53,645 bases of DNA, taken from a virus. Taxonomy: Duplodnaviria; Caudoviricetes. The stretch spans positions 1 through 53,645 of the IMG/VR virus record IMGVR_UViG_3300025875_000034; one strand, written 5' to 3'. Below are positions 128 through 53,352 of this stretch, piece after piece. The position numbers and the translations under genes were made by a program. The notes beneath the pieces are model-generated. The model did not search any database. It was given only the letters and a program-made list of their open reading frames with translations, and was not told where the DNA came from. Each line of letters begins with the position of its first letter. The first letter of the stretch is position 1.

Positions 128-248
128 CTGCGTTCATGTTAGCCCGAACCTGCATCATTGCCGTTCCGTTGCCGACTGTTTCAACTCTTTTGATTAAATA
201 CCCTTTATAAAGGGACGGTTCAAATTCGACTATTTCAACAGATTTCAT
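1..248 (-). CDS. 5' part of 137-aa hypothetical protein spanning the circular junction (continues 53518 to 53353)
   Basis: AAAAGCCGCAAGC-ATG at 248; MKSVEIVEFEPSLYKGYLIKR...GGLITAFSYNKNLG runs in frame into the 53353..53640 ORF. Confidence 0.85.
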   Translation of the reverse strand, partial: MKSVEIVEFEPSLYKGYLIKRVETVGNGTAMMQVRANMNAGGLITAFSYNKNLGFDIENARNKAKSYVDKMLRDLGVKKLLY

Positions 249-298
249 GCTTGCGGCTTTTCTGTTTGCAACTAGGTAAATATACGCATTTTTAAGCA

Positions 299-333
299 GA
301 AAACCTTGTTCACAGACTGCAAACAAGGTTTTC
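299..333. terminator. Stem-loop, possible terminator
   Basis: GAAAACCTTGTT-N11-AACAAGGTTTTC, intergenic downstream of 385..612. Confidence 0.5.
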
Positions 334-384
334 ACTTTCGGACCTTTGAATATTTTATTATTGATTTATTCAAAGACGTTTGAT

Positions 385-612
385 TTATTCTGATAGATTT
401 ATTCCAAGGTTTTTATCCTTTTCTTCATCTATCCTGCATTGGCAAAGCCCGTCATAGGCAGTAACCAAGCAGTTCCCGTCAGTTATACACGTATAGGGGC
501 AAGGTTGCCTTCCTTCGCGGTTCATTGGCTGTTCTAACAGGAAGTTTTGACAGCAATTGATGCCAAGCGCCACAACGGGGCAAAGCTTGTCGTTTTCGTG
601 CGGGCAATTCAT
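385..612 (-). CDS. Cys-rich hypothetical protein (75 aa)
   Basis: ORF with start motif AAAGCCGCAAGCATG; many Cys residues. Confidence 0.7.
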   Translation of the reverse strand: MNCPHENDKLCPVVALGINCCQNFLLEQPMNREGRQPCPYTCITDGNCLVTAYDGLCQCRIDEEKDKNLGINLSE

Positions 613-622
613 GCTTGCGGCT

Positions 623-1078
623 TTAATTAACTATTGTACGGTAAAGCTCGACAAGCTTTGCAAACTCCTTTTCAAAGTGCTGTTCATTCAGGAACCAAAT
701 AGAACGGTCAATTCTGGTTTTTCCGACAAACTGAACAAGGAAGTAGAACCGGCAAGTCTTGCGGTTTATCGAAACAAAGTATTGCGAATGAATCCCAACA
801 TGAAGCAAGTAATGTTCTTGCGCATCAATACCAATCGGAACATCTGCAACCGGCATCAAGCCCCAATTCAATAATTCCTCAACTTCCGGAACGTATGCTT
901 TGGGGCTTTCCGGGTGTTGTTGATACTCATTTTGGAAGTTGCGAATTCGCGGGAAATCGTTTTGCAGCGCCTTACTTGCTGCGCCCAACTCTCGCAGGCT
1001 CCGCACCATTTCTTTGCGGTTCTCGCCTTGAAACCATTCCTGCGGCCCGTTTATGATTGGCGTGTTGTCATCACTCAT
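623..1078 (-). CDS. Hypothetical protein (151 aa, start re-called to MSDDNTP)
   Basis: ATG overlaps stop region of upstream gene; removes long overlap. Confidence 0.7.
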   Translation of the reverse strand: MSDDNTPIINGPQEWFQGENRKEMVRSLRELGAASKALQNDFPRIRNFQNEYQQHPESPKAYVPEVEELLNWGLMPVADVPIGIDAQEHYLLHVGIHSQYFVSINRKTCRFYFLVQFVGKTRIDRSIWFLNEQHFEKEFAKLVELYRTIVN

Positions 1079-1292
1079 AAACAAACCCTTCCATTGCCTT
1101 GCGCAAGTGCAAAACAATCTTGTTCGCATCTTCCTGCGAGTAGTGAACAGAGAACAATGAAACCTGAATTTCAAGATTGCCTTTCGGCGCTTCAACACCT
1201 ACTGTTGCAACCTTTTTCAGCTTCACTTTTGGCGGTTCATTCCGCATCTGCTTGCGGATTGACTTAATCTGCTTTCCGGTTTCGTCTTTCAT
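1071..1292 (-). CDS. Hypothetical protein (73 aa, MKDETGKQ)
   Basis: AAAGCCGCA-ATG start motif. Confidence 0.75.
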   Translation of the reverse strand: MKDETGKQIKSIRKQMRNEPPKVKLKKVATVGVEAPKGNLEIQVSLFSVHYSQEDANKIVLHLRKAMEGFVYE

Positions 1293-1299
1293 TGCGGCT

Positions 1300-1479
1300 T
1301 TATTTTTGGGGAATCGTTTTAAGATGCGCGGTTGCAATCCGCAATTTCTCTTGCGCCGTTTTTACGGCTTTCGTCAGGCGAACAACAATCTGAACTTGCT
1401 TGTCAAACTCTGACACTGCTTTTTTCTTCGTTTTCTTGCCCGCTGCGCTACTCTTTGCGGCTGTTGCTGTCTTTGCCAT
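1300..1479 (-). CDS. Small basic protein (59 aa, MAKTATAAKSSAAGKKTKKKA...), not in ORF track
   Basis: Translated by hand; fills the gap, TAA abuts next start motif. Confidence 0.7.
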   Translation of the reverse strand: MAKTATAAKSSAAGKKTKKKAVSEFDKQVQIVVRLTKAVKTAQEKLRIATAHLKTIPQK

Positions 1480-1540
1480 TGTGAAGGGATTTGCGGCGCT
1501 CCTGTGCGCGAAGGATTAGAAAAATAATGAGTCCCATTGT

Positions 1541-1723
1541 TTACGGAAGTTCGGGTTTGATGATTGGATTAAAGAGCCGCCAAGTACGCATACTTTTTAT
1601 ATTAAACAACCTGTATGCACCTAGTTTCTTCTCATATACTGCACTGTTGAAGAAACAGTTATACAAATTCATATACATGAACTTGTTTGTCTCAAGGCTT
1701 TCTGCATCATCAATTGAAAACAT
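1541..1723 (-). CDS. Hypothetical protein (60 aa)
   Basis: AAACCGCA-ATG start motif. Confidence 0.6.
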   Translation of the reverse strand: MFSIDDAESLETNKFMYMNLYNCFFNSAVYEKKLGAYRLFNIKSMRTWRLFNPIIKPELP

Positions 1724-2333
1724 TGCGGTTTACAACATCAAGGTTGAAATGAAAGTTTTTCATCATAGCTGCAACACTTGCAGCCGACTTGCCAGCCATC
1801 AACAAGGCTTCACCATACCTTTCAATTGCGCTATATTTTGGCTTGCTCTGTATTCGCAATTCCCGTTCCCGGATGCGCAGCCGGGCTTTCGCACCTTCAA
1901 CTGACAAGCCAATCTTGCGGGTTGCATTTGCGGCCCCGTTGTTGACAACCTGCTTGACTTCTGACATTGCCTTTTTCGTCATCAAGTCGAGCCAATCTGA
2001 ATCGGGCCAACCGTCATACACTATGCCGAAAGCCTTTTCGAGTTGCGCGGCTGTCATTTCAGCAATCAGAGTTGCAACGGCTGCAACCTGCACTGATTCT
2101 TGTTCTAATTCAATCAGGCGCTTTTTGAATTCGCCCCGATTTTCTGCGCGGTTTAGCTCAAGTATTGCTTTCGCAACTTCGCCGGTTTCCTCTGACAGCA
2201 CAGTTGATAGAACAAAGAAGTCGTTTTCATTGCCCCAATTCCTTTCTATGCGCAGGCGCTCTTGACGAATTCGCTCTTGCTTGACAAATGCAAGCGCATC
2301 ATCAATTCTTTGTAGTTGTGTTGGCTTTTTCAT
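1710..2333 (-). CDS. MazG-like NTP pyrophosphohydrolase domain protein with C-terminal extension (207 aa)
   Basis: VLSEETGEVAKAIL...LEQESVQVAAVA resembles the all-alpha NTP-PPase ExxE motifs; start AAAGCCGCAAG-ATG. Confidence 0.7.
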   Translation of the reverse strand: MKKPTQLQRIDDALAFVKQERIRQERLRIERNWGNENDFFVLSTVLSEETGEVAKAILELNRAENRGEFKKRLIELEQESVQVAAVATLIAEMTAAQLEKAFGIVYDGWPDSDWLDLMTKKAMSEVKQVVNNGAANATRKIGLSVEGAKARLRIRERELRIQSKPKYSAIERYGEALLMAGKSAASVAAMMKNFHFNLDVVNRNVFN

Positions 2334-2565
2334 CTTGCGGCTTTCTTCTGGCAATTATGAAGTCAATAATTATGTCCGGGCTTTCAACTTGGTTCAGCTT
2401 GTGCAATGCTTTTGAAATCTTTCTAAGAGCTTTTTGAACTTTGTTTGATTCAAGAATTCCTAGCCTGTTTCTGAAAGCAACCTGCGCTTCCGAATTGAAA
2501 GCCATTGATGCAGTAAACATCAAAGCCGCCTGCATTGCTTCTTCATCTGTTAGCTTGATTTTCAT
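2302..2565 (-). CDS. Hypothetical protein (87 aa)
   Basis: ORF with TAAGCCGCA-ATG. Confidence 0.75.
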   Translation of the reverse strand: MKIKLTDEEAMQAALMFTASMAFNSEAQVAFRNRLGILESNKVQKALRKISKALHKLNQVESPDIIIDFIIARRKPQDEKANTTTKN

Positions 2566-2571
2566 TGCGGC

Positions 2572-2805
2572 TTATTTCAGTTCTCGAATTGCTTTGTCTA
2601 ATTCGGCCCGGCTTTTTTGAAGCCTTACCCATTGCTCTGCGGCTTCCTTTTCACGCCTGCAATCCCTTAATTCCTCTTGAAAATACCAAGCTTGATGTTT
2701 ATACAAAGTATAGTCATCAATATGCTGTCTTATTGCGCCCACTATTAGCGCAATGATGATTCCCGCAATAAAGCAGAGAGCCTTTTGTTTCGTTTCATTT
2801 TTCAT
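2572..2805 (-). CDS. Membrane-anchored coiled-coil protein (77 aa, MKNETKQ)
   Basis: N-terminal hydrophobic helix; start motif. Confidence 0.75.
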   Translation of the reverse strand: MKNETKQKALCFIAGIIIALIVGAIRQHIDDYTLYKHQAWYFQEELRDCRREKEAAEQWVRLQKSRAELDKAIRELK

Positions 2806-2936
2806 TGCGGCTTTTGTGTCAGATGAATTGTAATAAGAAAACAGGGAACCGGGCAAATGTAAATCTTGCTTTTCTTGGCATCAATGAACGCCCCAATCCA
2901 TAAGTCATACCAAGCAAATGAGAAGCTGACTTTCAT
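2802..2936 (-). CDS. Small hydrophobic protein (44 aa, MKVSFSFAWYDLWIGAF...), not in ORF track
   Basis: ATGA overlaps at both ends; translated by hand. Confidence 0.65.
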   Translation of the reverse strand: MKVSFSFAWYDLWIGAFIDAKKSKIYICPVPCFLITIHLTQKPQ

Positions 2937-3373
2937 TTGTACTTGCGGCGTGAACTCATAAAACCTTTGAACGGAACCGGCTTTTCTTTGGGCTGTTGCG
3001 GAGCCTTCATTGCAAGCAACGGCGCAGGGTCAAACACTGCTTGAGACTCGTTGATTATGCGTTTCAACCGTTCATCAAAGCGCTCCCAAAACGCCCGGAA
3101 TTCGCCGCCAACCTCAATACTGCATTCAACTTCAACCGTACCTCCTAAATACGGGCCGTGCGGCATTGGCTCGATTTCAGGCGCGAAAGGAATTGAACAT
3201 TGTGCAATTTCTTCTCGCAAGCTGTCTGCGTGTTCATCAAGCTTGCGAATGCAGTAATCATCTGCAAGCTTGTCAAGAATTTTCACGCCTGCCTGCAACA
3301 ACCTCTCTGTAACAAAGAAGCCCGAACCCGGACCAAGAATGAGAATGATTTGCTTTTTCTGTTCCTCTTTCAT
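2933..3373 (-). CDS. Hypothetical protein (146 aa, MKEEQKK)
   Basis: AAAGCCGCAAACTGAA-ATG start. Confidence 0.7.
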   Translation of the reverse strand: MKEEQKKQIILILGPGSGFFVTERLLQAGVKILDKLADDYCIRKLDEHADSLREEIAQCSIPFAPEIEPMPHGPYLGGTVEVECSIEVGGEFRAFWERFDERLKRIINESQAVFDPAPLLAMKAPQQPKEKPVPFKGFMSSRRKYK

Positions 3374-3405
3374 TTCAGTTTGCGGCTTTAAATGATAATG
3401 TCGTT

Positions 3406-3779: not shown

Positions 3780-5057
3780 TTAAACCGGCTCAACAAGCCT
3801 GCAAGCGTTCATTGCCCGCTGCATTATGGTGAACGATTCGTTGTAGTTGATTTTCACAAAGTATGCCTTGCAAAGCCGGAATACTTCAAACGCAGGCTTT
3901 GCCGACATATTTTCAGTGCTCATTACTGCATCTTGTTTCAGGTATTCGAGTGCGGCTGCAAGTTCGCTGTTTTCTTCCTGCACAAGAACCCATTTCGCAG
4001 AGTTGATTGCAACCGTTTTCAATTCTGCGTTGGTATAGATTGCAGTGAATTCGCTTGCGGAGAAATCAACGTTGCGGCCTTCAATCAGGAGTGAAACGCC
4101 GCCGTTGCTAAAGTTTTGGTCAATATCGAATTTTTGGCCGTTGTAGCGGGAATATGCTGATTCCGGATGAACGTTCACAATTGCTTGCATCTTCTTTGTA
4201 GGCGCAGGCTTTGCCATTGATTCAAGCTGCGCAGCCAAAGGAGCAACAACCGCAACATCTTCCGCAGTCACTACAACGGGCGGGAAATCCGGCAACCAAT
4301 CGGCTTTGTAATACAAGGCGGCGTTTCCCTTGCCTTCCGTTTTGCCTTTCTCCAAATAGCCAAGCCGAACAAGCTTTTCGCAAGACTCGATTGCGGTTGA
4401 ACTCATAACGTGCGAAGATATGCCAGCAACAGACGCAACAACATCTTCATAAACTTCAATCATTTCAGCCGTAGGCGCGTTTGCTGCGTCATAAGCCGCT
4501 GCAAGAATATCAATGTAAGAGTCAATGAAAACCATCTTGTGCAGCCGTGCGCCGCCAAACGGGCCGTTGTAAGTCACTGTCTTTTCACCTACTGCGGAAA
4601 TTGTCAGAGTGCGGCCCGTATTGTCAACAAACGAGAACCCGCGAACCGTCATCTTCTCTGCCTTTTCATATTTGTTCTTTGGCGCTTCAACCTCTGCAAC
4701 CAAAGTTGACAAGAGCAACTGCGCTTCATTGTCATCAATGAACAAATTCTTTTTGATGCGAACCGTAAAGCCGCCCAATTCAGGGAACATTGCGTTTTTC
4801 AAAAGGCGCTTCACAGTTACCGTCTTTGGGCCAACAGAAACAACCGTATCTGTGCAATCTTCCCAAACTTCATAACCCTTTTTTACTTGATGCTGACTTG
4901 TGAATTGCATTCCGGGCTTGATGCTTTCTGCGGCAACGTTGCGGCGTTCTGCGCCCGTCAGGCTGTCAAACTTACGCATTGGAGAATTTACGTATTCGGC
5001 GTAAGCACTAGGATTGCGCTGTTTCAGTGTTTCGAGTTGTGCGGCTGACATTGACAT
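3780..5057 (-). CDS. Multidomain hypothetical protein (425 aa) with repeated beta-barrel-like segments and a possible winged helix
   Basis: TVVSVGPKTVTV and TISAVGEKTVTY repeats; ESCEKLVRLGYLEK; first gene behind a conserved promoter. Confidence 0.75.
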   Translation of the reverse strand: MSMSAAQLETLKQRNPSAYAEYVNSPMRKFDSLTGAERRNVAAESIKPGMQFTSQHQVKKGYEVWEDCTDTVVSVGPKTVTVKRLLKNAMFPELGGFTVRIKKNLFIDDNEAQLLLSTLVAEVEAPKNKYEKAEKMTVRGFSFVDNTGRTLTISAVGEKTVTYNGPFGGARLHKMVFIDSYIDILAAAYDAANAPTAEMIEVYEDVVASVAGISSHVMSSTAIESCEKLVRLGYLEKGKTEGKGNAALYYKADWLPDFPPVVVTAEDVAVVAPLAAQLESMAKPAPTKKMQAIVNVHPESAYSRYNGQKFDIDQNFSNGGVSLLIEGRNVDFSASEFTAIYTNAELKTVAINSAKWVLVQEENSELAAALEYLKQDAVMSTENMSAKPAFEVFRLCKAYFVKINYNESFTIMQRAMNACRLVEPV

Positions 5058-5086
5058 AGCTTGCGGCTTTTCGTTTTTGGTATACC

Positions 5087-5140
5087 CAAAGGTAGGTAAA
5101 AAATAATACGCAAGTCAAGCTTTCCTGAAATTATTTTTCA
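5087..5140 (-). promoter_or_regulatory. Conserved phage promoter cassette (palindrome + TTG-N21-TACCTTTG)
   Basis: Minus strand TGAAAAATAATTTCA-GGAAAGC-TTGACTTGCG...TACCTTTG matches Bacteroidota -33/-7 consensus; near copy at 42336-42389. Confidence 0.8.
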
Positions 5141-5386
5141 AGGCAATCTTTTCAGCCAATTCAAACCGCCTCGCAAGAGTCGCATTGATGCGAAGTCGGC
5201 AACAGTCTTTTGCGGAGTGGTTAGAATGCCGCAATAGGTTGCGAACGTATGAACAAAGCTGTCTGCCTTGTTGGCCTTCACCCGCTGCAAGTACCGCTTG
5301 TTCAACTCGACTTCAACAAGATTCTTGCGCAGTTGGCGCAGTTCGTGTTTTGACAGCCAATGACAGTATTGTTTTTTCTTTTGCAT
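5138..5386 (-). CDS. Hypothetical protein (82 aa)
   Basis: Start motif AAAAGCCGCA-ATG. Confidence 0.7.
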   Translation of the reverse strand: MQKKKQYCHWLSKHELRQLRKNLVEVELNKRYLQRVKANKADSFVHTFATYCGILTTPQKTVADFASMRLLRGGLNWLKRLP

Positions 5387-5394
5387 TGCGGCTT

Positions 5395-5910
5395 TTAATA
5401 CGGGGCTTTGGGAAAATTCGGGCTTTCACCGCTTACTGCATAGTAAAAGACTGACTTGCCTTCATCTGCTTTTGCTTCATCTTCGCTTGCGTATTGACCT
5501 AACCTGCGGCGCTCTGCAAGCTCCCAATCATACGCCTTCCGCTTGGCTCTGCGTTCGTTTTCCTTGCGAACGTTGTCTGAATTTTCCAGCGGTTGAAGGT
5601 TGTCTATAACATACCCTTTTTCGTTTTCCTTGCGGTCAATGTGAAGGCTTGTTGCGTACCTTCCGCGCTTGTCGAGCAAATCAACGGGCCGCGCAAATTC
5701 CTTGAATTGCTCAAGCGTAATTTCAAATTTATATTCATGCTTGCGGCTTTCGGGCGCTTTCGCCTGCCTTGCGGCAACACTGTTGCGCCACTGACGAAAG
5801 GCGGTTTCATACGGGCGAACCTGCTTTTCGTGCCTGTAATCACAAGAAGAACACCGCACCTTGCGCGGCGCGGCGTTCTTTTCGCAATCCTTACACTTTT
5901 TCGCCTGCAT
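5395..5910 (-). CDS. HNH-like (His-Me finger) endonuclease with N-terminal Zn finger (171 aa)
   Basis: CKDC...CSSC; FEITLEQF; SLHIDRKENEKGYVIDNLQPL...N. Confidence 0.65.
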   Translation of the reverse strand: MQAKKCKDCEKNAAPRKVRCSSCDYRHEKQVRPYETAFRQWRNSVAARQAKAPESRKHEYKFEITLEQFKEFARPVDLLDKRGRYATSLHIDRKENEKGYVIDNLQPLENSDNVRKENERRAKRKAYDWELAERRRLGQYASEDEAKADEGKSVFYYAVSGESPNFPKAPY

Positions 5911-6587
5911 TAATCTTGCGGCAACCCGTCCTTTGGAAGCGTCAATTCATAACCTTCCGCAGCAACTCGCAGCTTTACAAAGTCAGCAAGTGTTGCAACG
6001 TCACTCGTTTTCCAAAATAGCCAATCCAAGCCCGAAAGCGTAGCAACGTAAGATTCAATTGGATTCAAGAACGGCTTCCGGTCATCATTCGAGAAACCAA
6101 GAGCGCAGGCGCTCAATTGGGCGCATTCCTCCTGAACAGAGTGCAGCTTGTCTTTGCCGTACAAACGGCGCATCTTCTCGCAAGATGCTTCAATGTTTTC
6201 GCCAAAGCCAATCAAACCCTGAAATTCAGGAACGCCCGCCTGAAACACGAACTGCAACCCGATATTCTGAAAAATAGACATTGCCGCAGTTGCAACGGCA
6301 TCTTCATAAGTCCCTTCAACAGAAGCCCGGAAGGTTTGCAGAAACAGTTGGTTTGCCTCTGCATCTTCACCTTTGGTCAAAGCTAAATCAAGTAATGACT
6401 TGACGGTTGCTTTGTCATTCTTGCGGCTGTTCTGTTGCCACGTCTGCGAAATTCCAAACAGGAAATGCAGAGTACGCAGGCGCAACGATGAATCAGCTTG
6501 CGGCTTGTTATTGTCTTTGTGCGTCTGCTTTTCCGGCAACAGTCGAGTTGCGGAAGTAATTAGAGACATTGCGGTTTCCTTTTTCAT
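5910..6587 (-). CDS. Hypothetical protein (225 aa)
   Basis: ORF with TAAGCCGCA-ATG. Confidence 0.75.
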   Translation of the reverse strand: MKKETAMSLITSATRLLPEKQTHKDNNKPQADSSLRLRTLHFLFGISQTWQQNSRKNDKATVKSLLDLALTKGEDAEANQLFLQTFRASVEGTYEDAVATAAMSIFQNIGLQFVFQAGVPEFQGLIGFGENIEASCEKMRRLYGKDKLHSVQEECAQLSACALGFSNDDRKPFLNPIESYVATLSGLDWLFWKTSDVATLADFVKLRVAAEGYELTLPKDGLPQD

Positions 6588-6593
6588 TGCGGC

Positions 6594-7049
6594 TTAATAA
6601 TTAAACGGGTTTGACAAATCCTGCGGCTTTTCGCCAAAGATACACACAGGAGCAAGCGGGCTGTTGTTGTGTGAAACCGCAAGCCAAACTTGCCCGAATT
6701 CGCTTGCATATCTAACTTCTGTTTCAGTCAGCTTTCTACGGAAAATAGAATGCCGATAATCAGAATAAATATACAAGCAGGCACTTTCGGAATCCGAACT
6801 AAAATCTGTATTGCTGTTGAGCTTTTCAGCAAAGATGCGCGGAACCGCAAGCACTGCATGACAATGAAGAACAACAAGCCAAACTTCACCTTTCTCGACA
6901 ACAGCCGCCAATTCTTGCGGGTTGAAGTCCCAAAGGGAAATTGCGTGTTTGTCATCAATGTAAACCGGCAAAGTCCCAACTCTGCCTTCATCACCTTTTG
7001 CGGGTTTCAAATAGGTGTTTGCTTCCGGGAAATCAGACCAACTTGCCAT
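6594..7049 (-). CDS. Hypothetical protein with internal domain duplication (151 aa)
   Basis: LPVYIDDKHAISLWDFNPQEL...GEVWLVV vs LYIYSDYRHSIFRRKLTETEV...GQVWLAV. Confidence 0.75.
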   Translation of the reverse strand: MASWSDFPEANTYLKPAKGDEGRVGTLPVYIDDKHAISLWDFNPQELAAVVEKGEVWLVVLHCHAVLAVPRIFAEKLNSNTDFSSDSESACLYIYSDYRHSIFRRKLTETEVRYASEFGQVWLAVSHNNSPLAPVCIFGEKPQDLSNPFNY

Positions 7050-8302: not shown

Positions 8303-8587
8303 TTATTTACTTCTGTTCTTGCTGATTTCGAGTTGCAGCGCATAAGCCTCTTGCGTCACTTTCAGCGCTAAACCTCTTGACTTGCGGAAAGCAAGCCTGC
8401 GTTCTACTTGCCGCAATCCGTTTTCCCGGTCCTTTTTTTCTTTGACATACCTTGCGCGTTCTGTGCCAACGTGCCAAACCGCAAGCTGTTGTTCTAAGTC
8501 CTTGTCTGACATAACAGCAAGCGCGGCTCTTGTCGGCTCGATTCGGAAGGCGTACTTGTCCTGATAACTCCTGTATGCAAAACCCAT
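8303..8587 (-). CDS. Basic hypothetical protein (94 aa)
   Basis: AAAGCCGCAAGCA-ATG. Confidence 0.75.
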   Translation of the reverse strand: MGFAYRSYQDKYAFRIEPTRAALAVMSDKDLEQQLAVWHVGTERARYVKEKKDRENGLRQVERRLAFRKSRGLALKVTQEAYALQLEISKNRSK

Positions 8588-8598
8588 TGCTTGCGGCT

Positions 8599-8718
8599 TT
8601 AAAAAAGTGAGACATTGTTGAATTCCCTGCGCTTGGCTATTAAGTAGCAGTAGAACTCCCGTAAACGGTAGTACGCATTGCTGCGCCCGTTGTGGCTTTT
8701 ATGAAGTCTGTGTTTCAT
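8599..8718 (-). CDS. Small protein (39 aa, MKHRLHKSHNGRSNAYYRLREF...), not in ORF track
   Basis: Directly after conserved promoter, AAAGCCGCAAGCA-ATG, TAA abuts next start motif. Confidence 0.6.
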   Translation of the reverse strand: MKHRLHKSHNGRSNAYYRLREFYCYLIAKRREFNNVSLF

Positions 8719-8740
8719 TGCTTGCGGCTTTATGATGTTT

Positions 8741-10551: not shown

Positions 10552-11304
10552 TTATTGTTTGTTTGGGTAAAGAAGATTGAAAAGAATGCTTTTTGTTCTC
10601 ATTGGGAAATTGCCTTTTAAAATCCATTCCCCAAATCCAACGTCAGACAATACCGGCTTGCCTTTTGCCTTTCCGATATTATAAATTATTTCGCCGTTTT
10701 TATTTTTGGCGAGAACTCCTGCGAAATCAACCCGTTCTGATTGGCCCAACATTTCCGACAATTCAAAAACATTGTCAGGCAAATCAGAATATCTTTCGAG
10801 TTGGCCCGCGAATACTTTAATTGTTGCGGCAACGTCTGCATCTGAACTATGCGCGTTTTCCAATTCGTCTATTCCGCAATAAAACTTGAGCGCGGCTGCG
10901 AGTGTGCGCGGCTCTTTCATTGTGAAGATTCGCAATGTGTCAACAATGCGAGTGTCTGCGGTTGGAAACTCGATACCACAACGGGCGAATTCCTCTGCAA
11001 GAATCGGAACATCAAACTTTTCTATGTTGTGTCCGCACAAGTCGCAATCTGCCAGGAATTGATGCAGACCGTTTGCGAGTTTTTTAAACGTTGGTTGGTC
11101 CGCAACCATTTCGTTTGTGATGCCGTGAACTGCGGTTGTGTCCGCAGGAATAGGAAAGCCCGGATTTATCAACCGGGTCTTTGTCTCAACATCAAAATCA
11201 GGCTTCATCTTGGAAAAGGTTGCCTGTACTATTCGGGCGGTTGCAGTGTCCTTTGATGTGGTTTCCAAATCAAAGATGACAAGCGGACGCAAAAGTTCAA
11301 TCAT
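10552..11304 (-). CDS. DEDDh 3'-5' exonuclease (DnaQ/Pol III epsilon-like, 250 aa)
   Basis: IFDLETT, VHGIT, GHNIEKFD, AHSSDAD motifs. Confidence 0.92.
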   Translation of the reverse strand: MIELLRPLVIFDLETTSKDTATARIVQATFSKMKPDFDVETKTRLINPGFPIPADTTAVHGITNEMVADQPTFKKLANGLHQFLADCDLCGHNIEKFDVPILAEEFARCGIEFPTADTRIVDTLRIFTMKEPRTLAAALKFYCGIDELENAHSSDADVAATIKVFAGQLERYSDLPDNVFELSEMLGQSERVDFAGVLAKNKNGEIIYNIGKAKGKPVLSDVGFGEWILKGNFPMRTKSILFNLLYPNKQ

Positions 11305-11340
11305 TGCTTGCGGCTTTATGTTTATGTAAATGTACTGATT

Positions 11341-11622: not shown

Positions 11623-11814
11623 TTATATTTTCAAGGGTTCAATTCCGGATGCAATGCAAATAATGTCAATTCCGCGCTTGAAGCACTCAAGCCGCCTTTC
11701 AGCTTCATCCTTTTTTATCCTGCCTTCATTCAGTTGAAATTCAAACCGCTTTTTGCAAGTCGCAAGTTGCTGCATCAACTCAACTATTATTTCGCCGGGT
11801 GTTGGGTTTTTCAT
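11623..11814 (-). CDS. Hypothetical protein (63 aa, MKNPTPG)
   Basis: TTCCGCA-ATG start. Confidence 0.7.
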   Translation of the reverse strand: MKNPTPGEIIVELMQQLATCKKRFEFQLNEGRIKKDEAERRLECFKRGIDIICIASGIEPLKI

Positions 11815-12322
11815 TGCGGAATAAATCAGGATAATTGTTTTTGAATTGTTGGAAGTATTGCGGCTCCAACCTTTCCATAATTTCCATTTTAAGCGCCCAA
11901 CTTTCGGGGTGAATCCGGCATGAGGTCCGCTTGTCATGTTCCCATATATAATGGCAATCTTGACATTCAAGCAATATGTTTTCCGGGTTCGCTCTGTGCT
12001 TTTCGTGCTGCTTTTCTGTCAGTACGTGCGAATGCGTCAAGCAGTTAGGTTCGCCGCAGCTTACGCACCAATGTTCATTTGTTGCATCTACTACTGCATA
12101 AGCCGCAGCCTTTTGCGCATTCTTTACCGCTTGCTTGCTGCTTACTTGTCGAATCGGCTTGCGGCTTTGCGGTAATCCGTTCCGGGCGGGCTTGCTTTCT
12201 TTCGGATTTTCTGACTTGATTCTTGCCTTGTTGTGTGTTGCGCATAAACAGAATTCTTTGTTCTCGATTTTATTTGAATTGCAGGGTTCGCCGGTTTCGA
12301 GTTCCCAAACACAGAGCTTCAT
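11780..12322 (-). CDS. HNH endonuclease, NinG/Rap-like position (180 aa)
   Basis: CVSC...THSHVL...ENILLECQDCH; follows NinB-like gene. Confidence 0.75.
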   Translation of the reverse strand: MKLCVWELETGEPCNSNKIENKEFCLCATHNKARIKSENPKESKPARNGLPQSRKPIRQVSSKQAVKNAQKAAAYAVVDATNEHWCVSCGEPNCLTHSHVLTEKQHEKHRANPENILLECQDCHYIWEHDKRTSCRIHPESWALKMEIMERLEPQYFQQFKNNYPDLFRNEKPNTRRNNS

Positions 12323-12774
12323 ATTTTATTATCCGAGTGCAACTGAACATATATTTCATCCGGAATTGATTTTGCATCCGGAATTTCAATACCTCTTTCT
12401 GCGCCCCAACGAATTACACTGTCAAGATAAGTCATCATTTCTTCCTTGGTGAACTTACTTGTTGAAAGCGGGTATTCAATCACTTCGCCGCCAAAATCAA
12501 AGCGGGTTCGCAATCCGAATTTTAATTTAAATATTTCATGCAACTCGCCTATTTCAAATCCGGTTGCATCTGAAAGCGTTTTATACACAACGCCCCAAAG
12601 GTATTTATTTTGCTGATTGCTGCGCAGCGCCGAATCTTTACCGTCAGTTAAATATATTTTGTATTCCGTTCCTGTGTCGAGCTTTTTACCTGACACTACG
12701 GTTCCCAACAATGCGAAGAATTTATTGAATTCGCCTTTTGTCAGATTATTCAGTTTTGCTTTTAAAAGAATCAT
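12319..12774 (-). CDS. ninB: NinB/Orf-family recombination mediator (151 aa)
   Basis: RSNQQNKYLWG...STSKFTKEEMMTYLDSV...GIEIP. Confidence 0.8.
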   Translation of the reverse strand: MILLKAKLNNLTKGEFNKFFALLGTVVSGKKLDTGTEYKIYLTDGKDSALRSNQQNKYLWGVVYKTLSDATGFEIGELHEIFKLKFGLRTRFDFGGEVIEYPLSTSKFTKEEMMTYLDSVIRWGAERGIEIPDAKSIPDEIYVQLHSDNKI

Positions 12775-12786
12775 TGCTTGCGGCTT

Positions 12787-13698
12787 TTATAGGGTTTCAA
12801 AATCAGTTTCAGTTGAAATGCGCTTGCCCGTTATCGGGTTGTAATCTTCAATGAAAGCTTGCCTGCGTTTTGTATATGCCGCAATCGTTGCTTCCTCTGT
12901 TTTGTTGAGCGCAGTTGATGTTGCGAATTTGCCAAGTGCGGCCCGTTCGCGGTCTGTGACGGTTGGCACAAATTCGCGCTTCAAGTATTCCTCAAGCTTA
13001 TTGCGGTTGTCTGCGCTGAACTGAATCTGCATTGACATAAGCTTTCGCCGGTTGTTCTCGTTTCGCTTTTCTTCTTCGCGCTTTATTTGTTCCGCAAGAA
13101 CCTTTTGTTCGCGCTCCTGCGGAGTCCCATACAACCGCAGGCGTTCGGCTTGCAGGAATTGGTGAAGTTCTTCCGGGTCTTTGGGCAATCCCTTTTGGTC
13201 TTGCGGCAAAACGCTTTTATGCGCAGAGTTGGTTTGCTCCCAAATCAAAGACCGTTCTTCAAGCTTTTCATATTTTTCAAACCAAGACAGTATTGTTGGC
13301 CCGTCCAATCTGTTATAGTACAGTTCTCCGAACTTTCCCATCTTTCCATATTTCAGGACAACCGCAATTTCCTCGAAACGCATTGCCCGGCTGCGCTCTG
13401 CAACCAAAGCCGCAATTTCTTTTATTTGGTCTTGGTTTGGCTTGTCAACACTCTTGCCGAAAAAGTTGACAGTTGCTTTTATCATTGTCGCAACAAGCGC
13501 AAAAAGTTCGCCTCTGTTTTCTCGCAGCAACGGTCCTACTTCCGTTCCCTTTTCTATTGCTTCGCGCAATGAAACCCGGTTTACTAATTTCGCAAGTTCA
13601 CCGTTCTTCCAATCTTCTTGTTGCGAGTTTGGATGCTGACTAATAGCCGCTAAAGTCGTTAGCGCTAAACCCGGATTGTATTTCTGTAAATCGTTCAT
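12787..13698 (-). CDS. Putative helicase loader / replication accessory protein (303 aa)
   Basis: Directly after initiator gene (lambda O-P layout); helical GKFGELYYNRLDGPTILSWF segment; function inferred from position. Confidence 0.5.
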   Translation of the reverse strand: MNDLQKYNPGLALTTLAAISQHPNSQQEDWKNGELAKLVNRVSLREAIEKGTEVGPLLRENRGELFALVATMIKATVNFFGKSVDKPNQDQIKEIAALVAERSRAMRFEEIAVVLKYGKMGKFGELYYNRLDGPTILSWFEKYEKLEERSLIWEQTNSAHKSVLPQDQKGLPKDPEELHQFLQAERLRLYGTPQEREQKVLAEQIKREEEKRNENNRRKLMSMQIQFSADNRNKLEEYLKREFVPTVTDRERAALGKFATSTALNKTEEATIAAYTKRRQAFIEDYNPITGKRISTETDFETL

Positions 13699-16822: not shown

Positions 16823-16850
16823 TTTCTTGCGGCTTTAAATTAGTGATGAA

Positions 16851-18168: not shown

Positions 18169-18179
18169 GTTGCGGCTTT

Positions 18180-18527: not shown

Positions 18528-18538
18528 TGCTTGCGGCT

Positions 18539-18754: not shown

Positions 18755-18781
18755 AGCTTGCGGCTTTATTGGTTGGTGTTT

Positions 18782-39046: not shown

Positions 39047-39053
39047 TGCGGCT

Positions 39054-48248: not shown

Positions 48249-48911
48249 TTATGCAGCGGCTTGCAGTTCAACAAACGGGTTAAAATCAAGGTCAACAAGT
48301 GCAACACGTTCGTCCCAATCCGCAGGCAGATAGAAGGAAATGACGTTTTTGTTGTCTTGGTTCAGACCTTCCGAACTCGTTCCGCCAACGTGGAAGTTGT
48401 AAAGCGGAATACCTTCATACGTGTCTGCAACTTCCTCGCCTTCCTCGAATACCTTTTGCAGCAAGGCTTGGTTGTTCACGTTGAACAGACCAATCGTAAG
48501 AGAGAAGCCGCCAAACGTAGGCAACGACATTTCTTCATACGAACGCAGAACAACCAACTGTTCAGTCGAGAGGTTGGCGCAGGTTAGCTCAACAAGGATT
48601 GCAGAGCGCCCCAAAGCGCGGGGAATACCTTTGAACGTGCTGTTGTCGTTGCCGCCTTCCTCCTGACGTTCTGACGGGGGAATTACAAGCCCGGCAAACA
48701 CAGGAGTCAGAACCATTTTCGCAGCGCCTAGTGCAGCCATTGCGGAAACCCAAGATGCTTTAGCATTCGCGGGCAAAGCAGGCGTGAACGGGCGGCTTGC
48801 GGACGGTTGAACCAACTGCAACGCACCCATTGCAAATTGGTCGAATTTCATGCCGCAAACACTTGCGGGCATTACTTTTAGCGCTGTTGGGCGCGGGCAA
48901 TTGAATTTCAT
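48249..48911 (-). CDS. Probable major tail tube protein (220 aa, MKFNCPRP)
   Basis: AAAACCGCA-ATG; beta-rich; own promoter; no other tube candidate near the tail genes. Confidence 0.5.
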   Translation of the reverse strand: MKFNCPRPTALKVMPASVCGMKFDQFAMGALQLVQPSASRPFTPALPANAKASWVSAMAALGAAKMVLTPVFAGLVIPPSERQEEGGNDNSTFKGIPRALGRSAILVELTCANLSTEQLVVLRSYEEMSLPTFGGFSLTIGLFNVNNQALLQKVFEEGEEVADTYEGIPLYNFHVGGTSSEGLNQDNKNVISFYLPADWDERVALVDLDFNPFVELQAAA

Positions 48912-48960
48912 TGCGGTTTTGTTTGGGTGAAGTATAAAATGCAAAATTGCAAAACGAATC

Positions 48961-50510: not shown

Positions 50511-50744
50511 TTACTTCTTTATTTCGCCTGCATATACTCGTTTGCAGTACTTAATTATTTGAATGCACTGTTCGCAATCAATTTTGTCAACTGTTGTTTC
50601 GCAATCAAGTATTCCCGACACTTCGCAAACACCTTCATTCAGTCCGCACAAGCTAGAATCATTTATTGTTCCCGCAAGGCACACTTTCGTTTCAGGCTGG
50701 CTTTCGTCATTGGTTGGTGCAAAGGTGAATCTAAGATGCTTCAT
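50511..50744 (-). CDS. Cys-rich small protein (77 aa, MKHLRF)
   Basis: SLCG...IDCEQC; start motif. Confidence 0.75.
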   Translation of the reverse strand: MKHLRFTFAPTNDESQPETKVCLAGTINDSSLCGLNEGVCEVSGILDCETTVDKIDCEQCIQIIKYCKRVYAGEIKK

Positions 50745-50751
50745 TGCGGCT

Positions 50752-50964
50752 TTATTTATTCGTGACAAACCAAGTTGAAAACTTTGCGGCTTTCCTGATT
50801 TCAACTATTGCGTCTTGGTCTAAGTCTTTAAGCGTTTCTTCAAACTCCTTTTTCGTTACTCGCATATATCCGAAAGGTGTTTTGACATTCACCCAATCAG
50901 CACGTTGCTTGATTATCATTCGGGCTTCTTTTACTGTGACGTGATTCCATTCAGTGTAATTCAT
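50752..50964 (-). CDS. Hypothetical protein (70 aa)
   Basis: Start motif. Confidence 0.75.
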   Translation of the reverse strand: MNYTEWNHVTVKEARMIIKQRADWVNVKTPFGYMRVTKKEFEETLKDLDQDAIVEIRKAAKFSTWFVTNK

Positions 50965-50986
50965 TGCGGCTTTTTTAAATGAACAA

Positions 50987-51026: not shown

Positions 51027-51506
51027 TTATTGCGGTTTTATCAACTCTTGCTTTGGGTAATCAATAAACCCGTTTGAATCAGTCGGCTTGTATTTGCTTG
51101 CATCCCAAACTGTACCGTCATCATCCCTTAACAGGTTCAAAGCTTCCGCCTCTGTCATGTTGAACGGGTCTTTGTAAACGTATTGCGGATTTTCGTTTGT
51201 GACTTTCAAATTGTCGCAAGACATTCCGGAAGGGAATTCGGGTTTCGTCATCAACCCGGCTGTCAAGTCTCCTATGCGCTGAACAAGTTCCGCAGGTAGA
51301 TTCGCAGGAGTCTTATTGCCTTGCGGGTGCGGTTCCGGGTCCGGGTAAAGGTCTTTGCCGTATTTGCGCTGCTTGACAACGTAGCGTTCCGGGTCATAAA
51401 AGAGAACGCCCGGTTCGCCCGTCTCTTTATGCGTTGGCCCGTAATCCTTGATGAAGTCAAGTTGAATTTCTGATTCCTCTGCGGTTGTGAAGCTGGCTTT
51501 TCTCAT
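51027..51506 (-). CDS. Hypothetical protein (159 aa)
   Basis: AAAACCGCA-ATG. Confidence 0.75.
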   Translation of the reverse strand: MRKASFTTAEESEIQLDFIKDYGPTHKETGEPGVLFYDPERYVVKQRKYGKDLYPDPEPHPQGNKTPANLPAELVQRIGDLTAGLMTKPEFPSGMSCDNLKVTNENPQYVYKDPFNMTEAEALNLLRDDDGTVWDASKYKPTDSNGFIDYPKQELIKPQ

Positions 51507-51513
51507 TGCGGTT

Positions 51514-51687
51514 TTATCTTATTCCTCCTTTACGTGTAGGCCAATTGATTTCTGACGTTGTAGGTAAGCGCAAGTGCGGGTAAGCGTCTCCAAGATGATA
51601 GTTGAACAGCGCATTCCCTGCATTCCGCAAGGCTGCAAGCTCCTGTTTCAATCTTTCGTTTTCGGCTTCAAGTTGGCGCTTTGTCAT
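51514..51687 (-). CDS. Small coiled-coil protein (57 aa, MTKRQLEAENERLKQEL...), not in ORF track
   Basis: AAACCGCA-ATG; translated by hand; fills the gap. Confidence 0.7.
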   Translation of the reverse strand: MTKRQLEAENERLKQELAALRNAGNALFNYHLGDAYPHLRLPTTSEINWPTRKGGIR

Positions 51688-51693
51688 TGCGGT

Positions 51694-51972
51694 TTAATAA
51701 TACAGGTTCTCGATTGCGTCAAGCTTGTTCTTGAAGTATTCAAGGCAGTTGACTTGATTCAGATAAACGCCTGAATCCTTTGAAACCTGCGCATCTTCCA
51801 AGAGCCTGATACTGTCTTTGATGCCTTCAACCTTTTCCTTGTAGTGCTGAACCCGTTCTTCTCTTTCGCTGCGGATTTGCTTCAATTGGTTCAGCATATT
51901 GTGCTGACGAATCCAAAGAATTATTGAGGCGCAAAGCAAGACAACAACTGCGGCAATTAATGCTTTTTCCAT
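51694..51972 (-). CDS. Membrane-anchored coiled-coil protein (92 aa, MEKALIAA)
   Basis: N-terminal TM; ACCGCA-ATG. Confidence 0.75.
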   Translation of the reverse strand: MEKALIAAVVVLLCASIILWIRQHNMLNQLKQIRSEREERVQHYKEKVEGIKDSIRLLEDAQVSKDSGVYLNQVNCLEYFKNKLDAIENLYY

Positions 51973-51980
51973 TGCGGTAT

Positions 51981-52196
51981 TTAGCTTTTGTTGATGTGCA
52001 TTTGATACCACAAATAAGGCCAAAGCACGAATGAAAAGAGAATGATGAAAAGCTTTGTGAATTGCGGGTTGAAAAATCTTATTGAAAAATCTTCCTCGAT
52101 TTCATCATTGAATTCATCAACTAATTCTTGATTGCGGGTTTCGTACATGACGAAAAGCATTCCAAAGACAATATGAATTAAAAAGGCTGTCAGCAT
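51981..52196 (-). CDS. Two-TM membrane protein (71 aa)
   Basis: Two hydrophobic segments. Confidence 0.7.
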   Translation of the reverse strand: MLTAFLIHIVFGMLFVMYETRNQELVDEFNDEIEEDFSIRFFNPQFTKLFIILFSFVLWPYLWYQMHINKS

Positions 52197-52202
52197 TGTG
52201 TT

Positions 52203-52628
52203 TTAAGCTCTGTATGATTGCGGATAAATTTGCTCTAAGTGCTGCGCGGCTTGCCGGGAAATGATGCAGCCGTTCCACTCGAAAGACAAGCCGTAATGCG
52301 TCATCTTTGTAATGTCGCAAGTGAAGGCGTTGTTGCGCTGAACGCCTCTGTATAGCCTTTCTTCACCATTTACTGACAAGTGAACGCCTCTTTCGTCATT
52401 GGCTAAATACTTATACTCAACATACTCTTGCGGCTTTCCAACTTCATCTTGCGGCTTTTCTTCGCTTACTTCAAACGACTTCACCAACGCCTGCGCATAT
52501 TGGGTTTGGCTTCCTCTTGCGGCAATCGAAACGCCGCCTTGAAATTCCCAATTGTCATTCTTGTGTTCAGCAACAGCCTTTTCAAACAAGTCAAGGTCTG
52601 TTGATTCAATTACTTTGTAAGTTGTCAT
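52203..52628 (-). CDS. DUF1737-like domain protein (141 aa, MTTYKV)
   Basis: YKVIES...FEKAVAEH...WEFQGGVSI...YAQALVK; start motif. Confidence 0.65.
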   Translation of the reverse strand: MTTYKVIESTDLDLFEKAVAEHKNDNWEFQGGVSIAARGSQTQYAQALVKSFEVSEEKPQDEVGKPQEYVEYKYLANDERGVHLSVNGEERLYRGVQRNNAFTCDITKMTHYGLSFEWNGCIISRQAAQHLEQIYPQSYRA

Positions 52629-52636
52629 TGCGGCTT

Positions 52637-52894
52637 TTAATATGGTGAGTTGTTTCCTTTTTTGCTGTTGCCGTATCTGCGTTGCAGTACGCATTGCATA
52701 TACAAAGAAATGTAGCGGTATTTCTTTGCGACTTCCTTCCGCAGCTTGGTTTGCGTTTCAAGATGCTTGCCCCGTTCCTCTCGCAGCTTCTTTTCAAGGC
52801 TGTTGCGTTGCGTTTCCGCAAGTATGACTGCGCCTAAAAGCATAAGGTCAACAAAGACTGAAAACACAAGTGCGGCTATTTCTGGCTTTTCCAT
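52637..52894 (-). CDS. Membrane-anchored protein (85 aa)
   Basis: N-terminal TM. Confidence 0.7.
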   Translation of the reverse strand: MEKPEIAALVFSVFVDLMLLGAVILAETQRNSLEKKLREERGKHLETQTKLRKEVAKKYRYISLYMQCVLQRRYGNSKKGNNSPY

Positions 52895-53341
52895 TTATGC
52901 AGAGTAAAACGAACTTTTAGGCATCTGATTGAAGGCGGCGCAGCAAGGACAATTGAACCCGTCAACCTCGTATTCCTCCTGCTTTATATCGAAAGCTTTG
53001 CCGCGCTCTGTGATTGCCGCAAGCGTAACTTCAAGTTCAGATTTGCAGGTTGTGCAGATGCGCCGAACGCTTGCAATGAAGGTGTTCTTCAATACTCTGA
53101 TTGCGGGTTGCGACCCTTTCAGCCTTTCAGCGAACGTTGGCTTTGGCCGTTCGCCGGGCGTTGTTTCAAGTACGCTTTCCTCAATAAAAAGAGAAAGCCG
53201 CAAGAGTCCGGCTTGCGCCTTTTCAAGCGTTTCAGGAGTTGATGCGCTCCTTTCAACATCTTCTGCAATTCCGGCAATCCAACCTTTGCCGCGCTCTGCG
53301 GCTTTGAATAATATGTGAAGGCTTTCTTCTGTGCTTTTCAT
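52895..53341 (-). CDS. Zinc-ribbon protein (148 aa)
   Basis: CTTC...CPCC; AAAAGCCGCAATT-ATG. Confidence 0.75.
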   Translation of the reverse strand: MKSTEESLHILFKAAERGKGWIAGIAEDVERSASTPETLEKAQAGLLRLSLFIEESVLETTPGERPKPTFAERLKGSQPAIRVLKNTFIASVRRICTTCKSELEVTLAAITERGKAFDIKQEEYEVDGFNCPCCAAFNQMPKSSFYSA

Positions 53342-53352
53342 AATTGCGGCTT

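Follow-up and report, generated by a model that had tools for sequence, protein, structure and literature searches.

What is a short GC-rich sequence doing directly in front of the start codons of a phage whose host is probably of a type that does not use Shine-Dalgarno (SD) pairing? The question is raised by IMG/VR record IMGVR_UViG_3300025875_000034, a virus of the Caudoviricetes whose entire record of 53,645 bases, a complete phage genome, forms the window analyzed here. All of its long open reading frames (ORFs) are carried by the minus strand. An initial annotation had listed 32 minus-strand starts preceded by a motif with the core CCGCAA, had likened the motif to the start-associated sequence (SAS) of cluster K mycobacteriophages, and had suggested either a translation-initiation or RNA-processing signal or a cassette-junction site. 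We find that the start-linked motif is strongly non-random and specific to this phage, and we tentatively read it as an RNA-level element that would mark early and non-structural cistrons for common translational control.

A GC-rich motif stands at a fixed place before start codons

Genes were called with our own crude, ATG-only procedure, in which greedy ORF choice gave 72 calls; shifting three starts to motif-supported ATGs and adding one ORF produced the final 73. All 32 of the starts listed initially show NCCGCA followed by 0-7 nt and ATG. The ORFs behind them encode 39-425 amino acids (aa) where closed, and the ORF at 248 reaches the end of the window. One further motif start, at 2936, was absent from the earlier list. 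CCGCA ends 0-7 nt 5' of the ATG at 33 of the 73 starts, or at 30 of 73 if the starts at 52628, 37120 and 8587, which were picked using the motif, are excluded. Because the core is raised throughout the genome, we scored the excess at starts against its actual sense-strand density and against other ATGs. The density (267 copies of CCGCA in 53,645 nt) predicts 2.9 motif starts (binomial p 8e-27), and 40 of 730 non-start sense ATGs carry the motif (Fisher p 1e-18). For AAGCCGCA the counts are 23 of 73 starts and 10 of 730 other ATGs. Enrichment at starts is thus well above the raised CCGCAA background.

The consensus is A-A-A-G-CCGCA-A, 9-10 nt in length, with AAAGCCGCAA as its 10-mer form. The distance between CCGCA and the ATG is 0 nt in 16 cases, 2 nt in two, 3 nt in three, 4 nt in seven, 5 nt in one, 6 nt in two and 7 nt in two, so that 23 of the 33 spacings are either 0 or 4 nt; seven spacers read AGCA or AGCT. 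Positions that were not used in defining the motif are also conserved when the copies are aligned on CCGCA: A prevails at -4 (25/33), -3 (32/33) and -2 (29/33), G at -1 (25/33; A in a further 6/33), and +1 is A in 33/33. This last base is the A of the ATG in 16 cases and the first spacer base in the others. A TAA triplet lies 4-6 nt 5' of CCGCA in 23 of the 33. Beyond these flanks the sequence differs from copy to copy. The sense strand holds 33 copies of AAAGCCGCAA, 21 of them at starts, where Markov models of orders 1-4 expect 0.4, 0.8, 3.6 and 7.9; an identical 16-mer occurs five times, against an expectation of at most 0.01.

The orientation of the motif is strict at starts, where all 33 copies are in the sense direction, as the initial annotation had described. 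Genome-wide the 10-mer is found 33 times in sense and eight times in antisense, and the CCGCAA core 185 and 122 times, respectively. No start among the 73 is preceded by the full motif in antisense. An inverted core, TTGCGG, occurs only in front of the large terminase gene terL (start 50503), as had been noted before; we estimate that about 1.3 such starts would arise by chance (122 sense copies, 73 starts, 8 positions). We saw no convincing GTG or TTG start behind a motif, the gene caller being restricted to ATG.

The motif tracks the start codon and the gene class

The distribution of motif starts differs between modules. The motif precedes 23 of 41 starts in positions 1-22,500 and 7 of 9 beyond terL, and only 3 of the 23 in the virion and packaging block. 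Outside and inside this block the proportions are 30/50 and 3/23 (Fisher p 2.8e-4), which agrees with the earlier statement that most virion genes lack the motif and places it chiefly in front of non-structural genes.

No such preference ties the motif to one kind of gene junction. It is present at 16 of 28 starts behind gaps of 1-15 nt, 2 of 4 behind gaps of 16-60 nt, 8 of 21 behind gaps of more than 60 nt, and 7 of 19 at overlapping or abutting junctions. At seven overlapping junctions the preceding coding sequence (CDS) contains the motif. Its presence across all junction types means that it tracks the start codon rather than the stop codon, the spacer or the intergenic position.

The motif is missing from relatives and rare in the host phylum

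All relatives that we could find are distant. A megablast search with 24 kb of the window against GenBank phages gave no match. Searching IMG/VR and metagenome contigs with TerL yielded one relative at 52% identity, and a TerL profile search collected 80 loci each from viruses and from genomes, with identities of 32-52%; the nearest TerL identity is 55%. An exact 17-mer scan of IMG/VR returned 29 loci with a single match each, none of them dense in CCGCAA, and we take these matches as chance. In 82 loci of TerL relatives the motif was not found; their CCGCAA density is 0-2.1 per kb, compared with 5.72 per kb here, and their commonest pre-start words are mostly A/T-rich, SD-like in a few of the loci, and never motif words.

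The two closest records, G699 and G700 (estimated completeness 99% and 88%, respectively), have the structural module in common with this phage at 27-52% protein identity. The motif was not found in either; they hold 53 and 25 CCGCAA cores, respectively, on both strands, and their composition is unremarkable except that GATC has few copies (7) in G699. G699 has the same GC content as this phage and lacks most of the word avoidance described below. No relative of the AAA ATPase encoded here was detected in IMG/VR, G699 or G700. The orthologues in G699 and G700 of the genes starting at 48911, 39046 and 37120 have A/T-rich leaders; these junctions are conserved, and the motif therefore originated where it now stands.

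The motif is also rare in bacteria of the presumed host phylum, in a sample that may lack the real host. The 11-mer with ATG, AAGCCGCAATG, has between 0 and 10 copies in each of 301 Bacteroidales genomes, and the 12-mer AAAGCCGCAATG occurs at most seven times in 400 of 401 Bacteroidota genomes, which answers the concern that the same leader might be normal in host genes, at least for the genomes sampled. In 251 Bacteroidota genomes AGCCGCAAG was counted 3-106 times per genome, similar to a reversed-word control, while this phage has 34 copies in 53.6 kb. The initial description of the motif as phage-specific holds for both sets of sequences. A whole-word literature search for motif strings, to which supplementary files were out of reach, returned no paper on the motif. 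One genome, G615, was considered as a host since it has 19 copies of the 12-mer, and was rejected: 10 of 12 fetched 11-mer copies lie in one multicopy repeat. This repeat (loci L228-L239) contains AAGCCGCAATG, often stands at contig ends and bears no relation to phage gene starts.

Two leader classes in one phage genome

The identity of the host matters for what the leaders mean. The portal, the large terminase and the virion proteins match tailed-phage families, and the 25 tblastn matches listed for the portal, at approximately 28-33% identity, come from phages that infect Bacteroides, Parabacteroides, Flavobacterium, Croceibacter, Alistipes and Elizabethkingia. The leaders are nearly free of SD-like words. 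Together, the portal matches and the near absence of SD-like words point to a host that is probably of the Bacteroidota type. Searching the window for further host clues returned zero tRNAs and zero Rfam families. A possible source run of the DNA is labelled as a groundwater metagenome.

In Flavobacterium johnsoniae, A at -3, -6, -12 and -13 relative to the start codon are positive determinants of initiation, and in reporters an A-3G change cuts output by 70% and A-6G by 40%, as given in the relevant part of Baez et al. 2019 (PMC6847099). The phage leaders resemble this Kozak-like context of the Bacteroidia in having no SD sequence and in keeping A at -12 and -13 in both classes. The 40 starts without the motif fit the context further, with A at -3 in 21 of 40. 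The motif starts differ from it: 24 of 33 have G at -3 and 22 of 33 have G or C at -6. The initial remark that a fixed GC-rich leader is unexpected for Bacteroidota is borne out by this break with the rule of A at -3. By host rules, extended to the phage by analogy, the motif class would have unfavorable bases immediately in front of its ATGs. It is nonetheless the conserved class, and it has an expression-friendly second codon: AAA follows the ATG in 13/33 motif starts and in 3/40 others (p 0.0015).

An RNA-level start-associated element is the favored reading

We infer that the motif is read at the RNA level, in the control of translation, and by a trans-acting reader rather than by SD-like pairing. 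In this reading it would form the last part of the initiation region of 33 of the 73 genes and act in the mRNA, not in the DNA. The tag would place early and non-structural cistrons under one translational control, exerted by a sequence-specific factor of phage or host origin (an activator, a repressor or a nuclease) or by direct contact with the ribosome. We favor it because of the strict sense orientation, the tight spacing to the ATG, the occurrence at all junction types, the gene-class bias and the origin in place. Position, orientation, spacing and gene-class bias are direct observations on the genome, as is the absence of the motif from relatives and from the sampled host-phylum genomes as a leader. 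We put its chance at somewhat below even. Of the two signals proposed in the initial annotation, translation initiation and RNA processing, the former appears better supported, short of a demonstration.

Several findings weigh against this reading. Counted on both strands, no hexamer of the genome is more frequent than CCGCAA (307 copies, with 55.4 +/- 7.1 in dinucleotide shuffles). This rank, the enrichment of the core and the word avoidance had been overlooked in the initial annotation. In the 50 CDS of at least 100 codons, the core occurs 141 times in sense and 102 times in antisense, where synonymous shuffles give 41.5 +/- 4.9 and 35.8 +/- 5.8. Against these shuffles CCGCAA ranks first among hexamers (z 18.7), and 10 of the 12 top hexamers are words of AAAGCCGCAAGC, of its CGCAAT variant or of their reverse complements. 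The 10-mer is enriched in the same way, with 11 copies inside CDS and 8 antisense copies genome-wide; for the core, 143 sense copies fall within CDS. Intragenic enrichment on both strands is not expected of a signal that serves translation only. In addition, there is no close relative, so conservation under selection cannot be shown. The predicted accessibility of positions -5 to -1 is not higher at motif starts (0.52 unpaired) than at other starts (0.64), and leader structure prediction revealed no clear difference between the two classes. Finally, no RNA-binding, S21, RegA-like or RegB-like family that could supply the reader was among the Pfam matches listed for 54 small or early proteins; 25 of the 27 matched families were listed, and most of the small proteins have no match.

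A less likely reading: a site acting in DNA

The enrichment inside genes is what one would expect if the motif were a DNA-level site, namely a stoperator-like repressor site, a site for a nucleoid or packaging protein, or a Chi-like signal, with the start copies as its best-placed subset. All three reading frames contribute to the intragenic excess of the core, and intragenic copies on either strand keep weaker flanks, AA-N-CCGCAA-G/T. An observed-to-expected ratio (O/E) of at least 3 is reached by only 6 of 897 well-populated hexamers. The high local count of AGCCGCAAG compared with whole bacterial genomes, and the fact that word avoidance covers only part of the CCGCAA count (see below), also speak for such a site. 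A DNA site, however, need not track the ATG in constant orientation at a spacing of 0 or 4 nt. The density of one core per 175 bp is far above any that is known for Chi or uptake sequences, and none of the sampled host genomes is enriched in the word, so that a Chi or uptake signal of the host is unlikely in those genomes. We consider a DNA-level site unlikely, although it survives better than the other alternatives.

A more conventional operator candidate is already in place. Three copies of a promoter-like repeat on the minus strand, at 5058-5140, 8719-8792 and 18755-18834, precede the starts 5057, 8718 and 18754. Each is laid out as a palindrome TGAAAAATAWTTTCA, then CTTGACTT, a TAnnTTTG-like box, the motif leader and the ATG; the palindrome is also written TGAAAAATA(A/T)TTTCA. 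The TAnnTTTG-like box resembles the -7 element of Bacteroidota promoters. Behind these repeats the motif with AGCA or AGCT fills most of the short region before the ATG. The three repeats are probably early promoters with a common operator, and the palindrome TGAAAAATAWTTTCA is a more ordinary candidate for a DNA operator than the motif. A search of the window with the Bacteroidota promoter consensus was uninformative, with 3 matches and 3.0 expected.

The inverted form of the motif was also considered. The anti-motif TGCGGCTT on the sense strand, which had suggested an antisense regulator, is mostly intragenic, with two copies in the spacer at 20906-21010. In this minus-strand spacer the anti-motif CTTGCGGCTTTC occurs twice, together with a 7-bp hairpin (TTCGTAT/ATACGAA); a downstream ACCGCAAGCAA, which a T-rich run follows, is able to pair with the second anti-motif, giving a terminator-like compound stem of motif words. 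A general hairpin role was rejected: CCGCAA...TTGCGG pairs 10-20 nt apart number 8, with 3.9 expected, too few to account for the enrichment of the core.

A less likely reading: a product of restricted vocabulary

The genome avoids many words. GATC is absent where 207 copies are expected, and O/E is 0.09 for CCAG/CTGG, 0.14 for CCAC/GTGG, 0.15 for CTAG, 0.21 for CATG and 0.53 for TA. Of the 64 six-base palindromes 40 are absent, and TGCGCA, AAGCTT, CAATTG, TTGCAA and GAATTC are 3-5-fold over-represented. The genome favors each of the 4-mers that make up the motif. The motif could then have no dedicated function, being the most probable path from A-rich to GC-containing sequence in a vocabulary narrowed by avoidance of restriction-type words and having spread among leaders by drift or small-scale copying. 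In keeping with this, the top three CCGCAA densities among the loci of relatives (2.0-2.1 per kb) all belong to loci that lack GATC. We modeled avoidance with synonymous swaps that never raise the counts of 38 rare 4-mers or of the 40 absent palindromes. This null lifts the expectation for CCGCAA from about 40 to 64-78, even though it overshoots, leaving about 600 avoided words where 1,946 are observed. The observed 141 is about double this expectation, and therefore avoidance accounts for only part of the CCGCAA background.

The Markov models above, which contain the vocabulary, still expect only 0.4-7.9 of the 33 10-mers and at most 0.01 of the five 16-mers. The concentration of 21 of the 33 sense 10-mers at starts and the retention of the motif where it is embedded in an upstream CDS are also at odds with an origin without function, and the flanks beyond the motif are dissimilar, so recent copying is unlikely. 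We regard the lack of any function as a little less probable than a DNA site. The raw material of the motif is compositional, drawn from words that the genome prefers; its placement is not. As a separate observation, seven loci from Muribaculaceae or Prevotella genomes and IMG/VR (L155, L125, L148, L169, L111, L038 and L067) are free of both GATC and CTAG over 6-21 kb, and their densities of CGCAA and CCGCAA come next after that of the window.

Possible but improbable pairing with 16S rRNA outside the anti-SD

The motif word AGCCGCA is complementary to UGCGGCU, the 3' strand of helix 45 in 16S rRNA, which lies 9 nt before the anti-SD. Two Muribaculaceae 16S 3' ends (L193 and L194) read ...GTAGCCGTACCGGAAGGTGCGGCTGGAACACCTCCTTTCT, and this 16S offers the motif no perfect 7-nt complement other than TGCGGCT. 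Of random 7-mers tried, 0.16% had a complement within the last 36 nt and 8.9% had one somewhere in the whole 16S. The variable spacing to the ATG of 0-7 nt is like that of pairing signals. In the Bacteroidia the anti-SD is sequestered, according to PMC7797042 and PMC9976891, and pairing at helix 45 would load early mRNAs on ribosomes in that state.

The details of the match speak against pairing. This sole complement belongs to the 3' strand of a conserved helix, where it is base-paired, and not to the single-stranded tail, and the motif matches the helix's own 5' strand, AGCCGTA, at 6 of 7 positions. Pairing is impossible for the A at +1 (33/33) and the A at -3 (32/33), each of which would stand opposite a G of the rRNA, and where A replaces G at -1 (6/33) a G-C pair is lost. 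If bulges are allowed, two other places in the 16S match or improve on the duplex energy. There is also a precedent: for the 'downstream box', whose complement is likewise a helical stretch of 16S rRNA, a mode of action by pairing was reportedly refuted later. We therefore hold direct pairing to be improbable. In a variant to which we give a slimmer chance still, the motif, which copies the 5' strand of helix 45 and complements its 3' strand, would make a ribosome contact that the host does not use and so serve a phage-only, non-SD mode of initiation. The contact may be with the ribosome or with a factor that reads helix 45, and might sense the maturation or state of the ribosome. Mimicry of the initiator tRNA was rejected as well. 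A Muribaculaceae initiator-type tRNA ends ...CTCCCGCAAC and shares CCGCAA with the motif, likely a 6-mer coincidence.

RNA processing and cassette junctions as improbable readings

An endoribonuclease of phage or host might cut at the motif and in this way inactivate early mRNAs at a later stage of infection, in the manner of RegB, or trim polycistronic RNA to cistrons with short leaders or none. The bias of the motif toward initiation regions of early and non-structural genes, and its rarity at late genes, would suit such a site, and where it abuts the ATG (16 cases) a cut at its 3' edge would leave a leaderless mRNA. The targets of T4 RegB share this early-gene bias. No known RNA-cleaving nuclease family is among the Pfam matches listed, however, a weak RNase_E_G_Thio match (E 0.0019) not being a catalytic domain, and cleavage would also hit the sense copies within long genes, late genes among them. 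We rate processing as about as improbable as 16S pairing.

The initial alternative of a cassette-junction site, in which the motif would provide microhomology for swaps of small accessory genes between phages, is weakened and now very improbable: the TAA 4-6 nt 5' of CCGCA in 23 of 33 copies (the motif often filling the whole stop-to-start spacer), the many small flanked ORFs of unassigned function and the coding capacity for an exonuclease, a NinB/Orf-like protein and a weak HNH and NinG/Rap match (E about 5e-4) are set against motif copies before three genes, conserved structural ones among them, whose orthologues in relatives lack it, at seven overlapping junctions, in promoter-proximal leaders and at 8 starts behind gaps of more than 60 nt, against the lack of a motif-bearing exchange partner in the collections searched, and against a fixed ATG spacing that recombination does not need.

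Individual copies of the motif

All copies lie on the minus strand. In the part of the window nearest its left end, AAAGCCGCAAGC-ATG is found at 246..260 (gene 248..3) and 610..624 (gene 612..385), and AAAGCCGCA-ATG at 1290..1301 (gene 1292..1071) and, at an overlapping junction, at 2803..2814 (gene 2805..2572). The variant TAAACCGCA-ATG occupies 1721..1732 (gene 1723..1541). AAAGCCGCAAG-ATG at 2331..2344 (gene 2333..1710) is within the end of the upstream ORF. TAAGCCGCA-ATG occurs at 2563..2574 (gene 2565..2302) and again at 6585..6596 (gene 6587..5910), where a second in-frame ACCGCA-ATG follows 18 nt downstream. The start added to the earlier list has a weak variant, CACGCCGCAAGTACAA-ATG, at 2934..2952 (ORF 2936..2802, 44 aa), and the motif at 3371..3389 is separated from the ATG of gene 3373..2933 by a 7-nt spacer.

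The first genes behind promoter-like repeat copies 1 and 3 both begin with AAAGCCGCAAGCT-ATG, at 5055..5070 (gene 5057..3780) and 18752..18767 (gene 18754..18539). Motif and ATG are directly joined at 5384..5395 (gene 5386..5138), and the variant GTTGCCGCAAGATTA-ATG at 5908..5925 (gene 5910..5395) is within the end of the upstream gene. The full 16-mer, AAAGCCGCAAGCAATG, is found at 8585..8600 (gene 8587..8307), at 8716..8731 in front of the first ORF behind promoter-like repeat copy 2 (8718..8599, 39 aa), at 11302..11317 (gene 11304..10552, a DnaQ/RNase T-like exonuclease), at 12772..12787 (gene 12774..12319, NinB/Orf-like) and at 18525..18540 (gene 18527..18180). Between these lie the weak variant TATTCCGCA-ATG at 11812..11823 (ORF 11814..11623), a motif with a 5-nt spacer at 16820..16836 (gene 16822..15830, exonuclease) and AAAGCCGCAAC-ATG at 18166..18179 (gene 18168..16948, an AAA/SbcC-like ATPase). 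The variant TAAACCGCA-ATG recurs at 22133..22144 (gene 22135..21011), with an additional ACCCGCAA 15 nt upstream.

In the virion and packaging block, the variant AAACCCGCAAGAACA-ATG is at 37118..37135 (gene 37120..36659, whose G700 orthologue has an A-rich leader), motif and ATG are at 39044..39055 (gene 39046..38621, a virion structural protein) and the variant AAAACCGCA-ATG is at 48909..48920 (gene 48911..48249, head protein family); for the latter two genes the orthologues in both G699 and G700 are without the motif. Beyond terL, motif and ATG are directly joined at 50742..50753 (gene 50744..50511), 50962..50973 (gene 50964..50752) and 52626..52637 (gene 52628..52203, whose start was chosen by the motif over an earlier in-frame ATG at 52694). 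The remaining copies there are the variants AAAACCGCA-ATG at 51504..51515 (gene 51506..51027), TAAACCGCA-ATG at 51685..51696 (gene 51687..51514) and AATACCGCA-ATG at 51970..51981 (gene 51972..51694), and AAAGCCGCAATT-ATG at 53339..53353 (gene 53341..52895).

Within called genes the motif with an ATG is also seen on the minus strand at 17247, 5738, 6569 and in the 52445 region. The copy at 17247 is in frame in the 406-aa ATPase and would give a 99-aa product, and that at 5738 is off frame in gene 5910 and opens a 44-aa ORF. Such intragenic sites could be internal starts or overlapping small genes. Two full motifs lack an ATG, both on the minus strand: one at 8215 stands behind a TAA triplet in the spacer before gene 8151, and one at 7814, just past the start codon of gene 7820, has ATT behind it.

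Gene content of the record

Both ends of the record carry an identical 127-nt direct terminal repeat (1-127 and 53519-53645), in agreement with the record's class. The early region codes for an exonuclease, a NinB/Orf-like protein, a DnaD/O-like initiator and a DnaQ-like exonuclease, and for one protein with the weak match to HNH and NinG/Rap endonuclease families mentioned above. The gene of the DnaD/O-like replication initiator (14674..13640) contains four tandem 23-nt repeats at 14124-14232, which look like origin iterons by analogy with lambdoid phages.

Comparison with known systems

The cluster K SAS is the closest analogue. As described in the part of Pope et al. 2011 (PMC3203893) that bears on it, it is a 13-bp asymmetric sequence in 11-19 copies, 3-7 bp before mostly ATG starts in the non-structural half of the genome, with nearly all copies in one orientation, virtually absent from hosts and with no function assigned. 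The same part reports an AGGAG SD core, only 6 of 125 SAS inside ORFs, and conservation across subclusters. The phage motif likewise is a short, asymmetric, many-copy repeat a few nt 5' of the ATG, in one orientation at starts and concentrated in non-structural genes; an upstream stop codon is often inside or adjacent to it, it is rare in the host-phylum genomes sampled, and both are thought to concern translation initiation. The analogy drawn in the initial annotation is apt in these respects.

The motif is not, however, a member of the SAS. It is unrelated in sequence and has neither GGGATAGGAGCCC nor an SD core (there is no GGAG in the consensus), it occurs 33 times rather than 11-19, and its spacing is 0-7 rather than 3-7 nt. 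Its core is strongly enriched in ORFs on both strands, where the SAS is rare. No partner inverted repeats like those that accompany the SAS (ESAS) were seen. The motif is also not shared with any known relative and belongs to a phage whose host appears to be of the Bacteroidota type, in which SD is not used.

Other systems are more remote. The stoperators of cluster A mycobacteriophages are also many short asymmetric sites, oriented with transcription and set in short intergenic spaces. They act in DNA through a repressor and are not known to keep a fixed distance to a start codon, in contrast to the tight ATG spacing of the phage motif and its separate palindromic operator candidate. The targets of T4 RegB and RegA are like the motif in that one short sequence recurs in early-gene initiation regions for a single phage factor, and differ in that they consist of the SD (GGAG) or of AU-rich operators; the Pfam matches listed for the 54 proteins include no homologue of either RegA or RegB. 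The T7 gene 10 epsilon element and the downstream box are phage leader elements complementary to 16S rRNA outside the anti-SD. In the present case the complement is the 3' strand of helix 45; the downstream box, too, had a helical target, and its pairing was reportedly disproved later.

Only general A-rich features are known to guide start-codon choice without SD pairing in Bacteroidota. Here a fixed GC-rich leader at odds with the A(-3)/A(-6) rule precedes almost half of the genes of one phage but not its late genes, so that two leader classes in one genome offer a clean natural contrast. The enrichment of motif words on both strands and the avoidance of other words are further findings that are partly explained; a GATC-free genome in which 40 of 64 six-base palindromes are absent bears on how avoidance of host defence reshapes phage vocabulary. 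Experimental verification of the SAS is still called for in the relevant section of a 2025 survey (PMC12699233). If a factor reads the motif described here, it would be a second, independent case of a start-associated sequence, a class whose function has been open since 2011.

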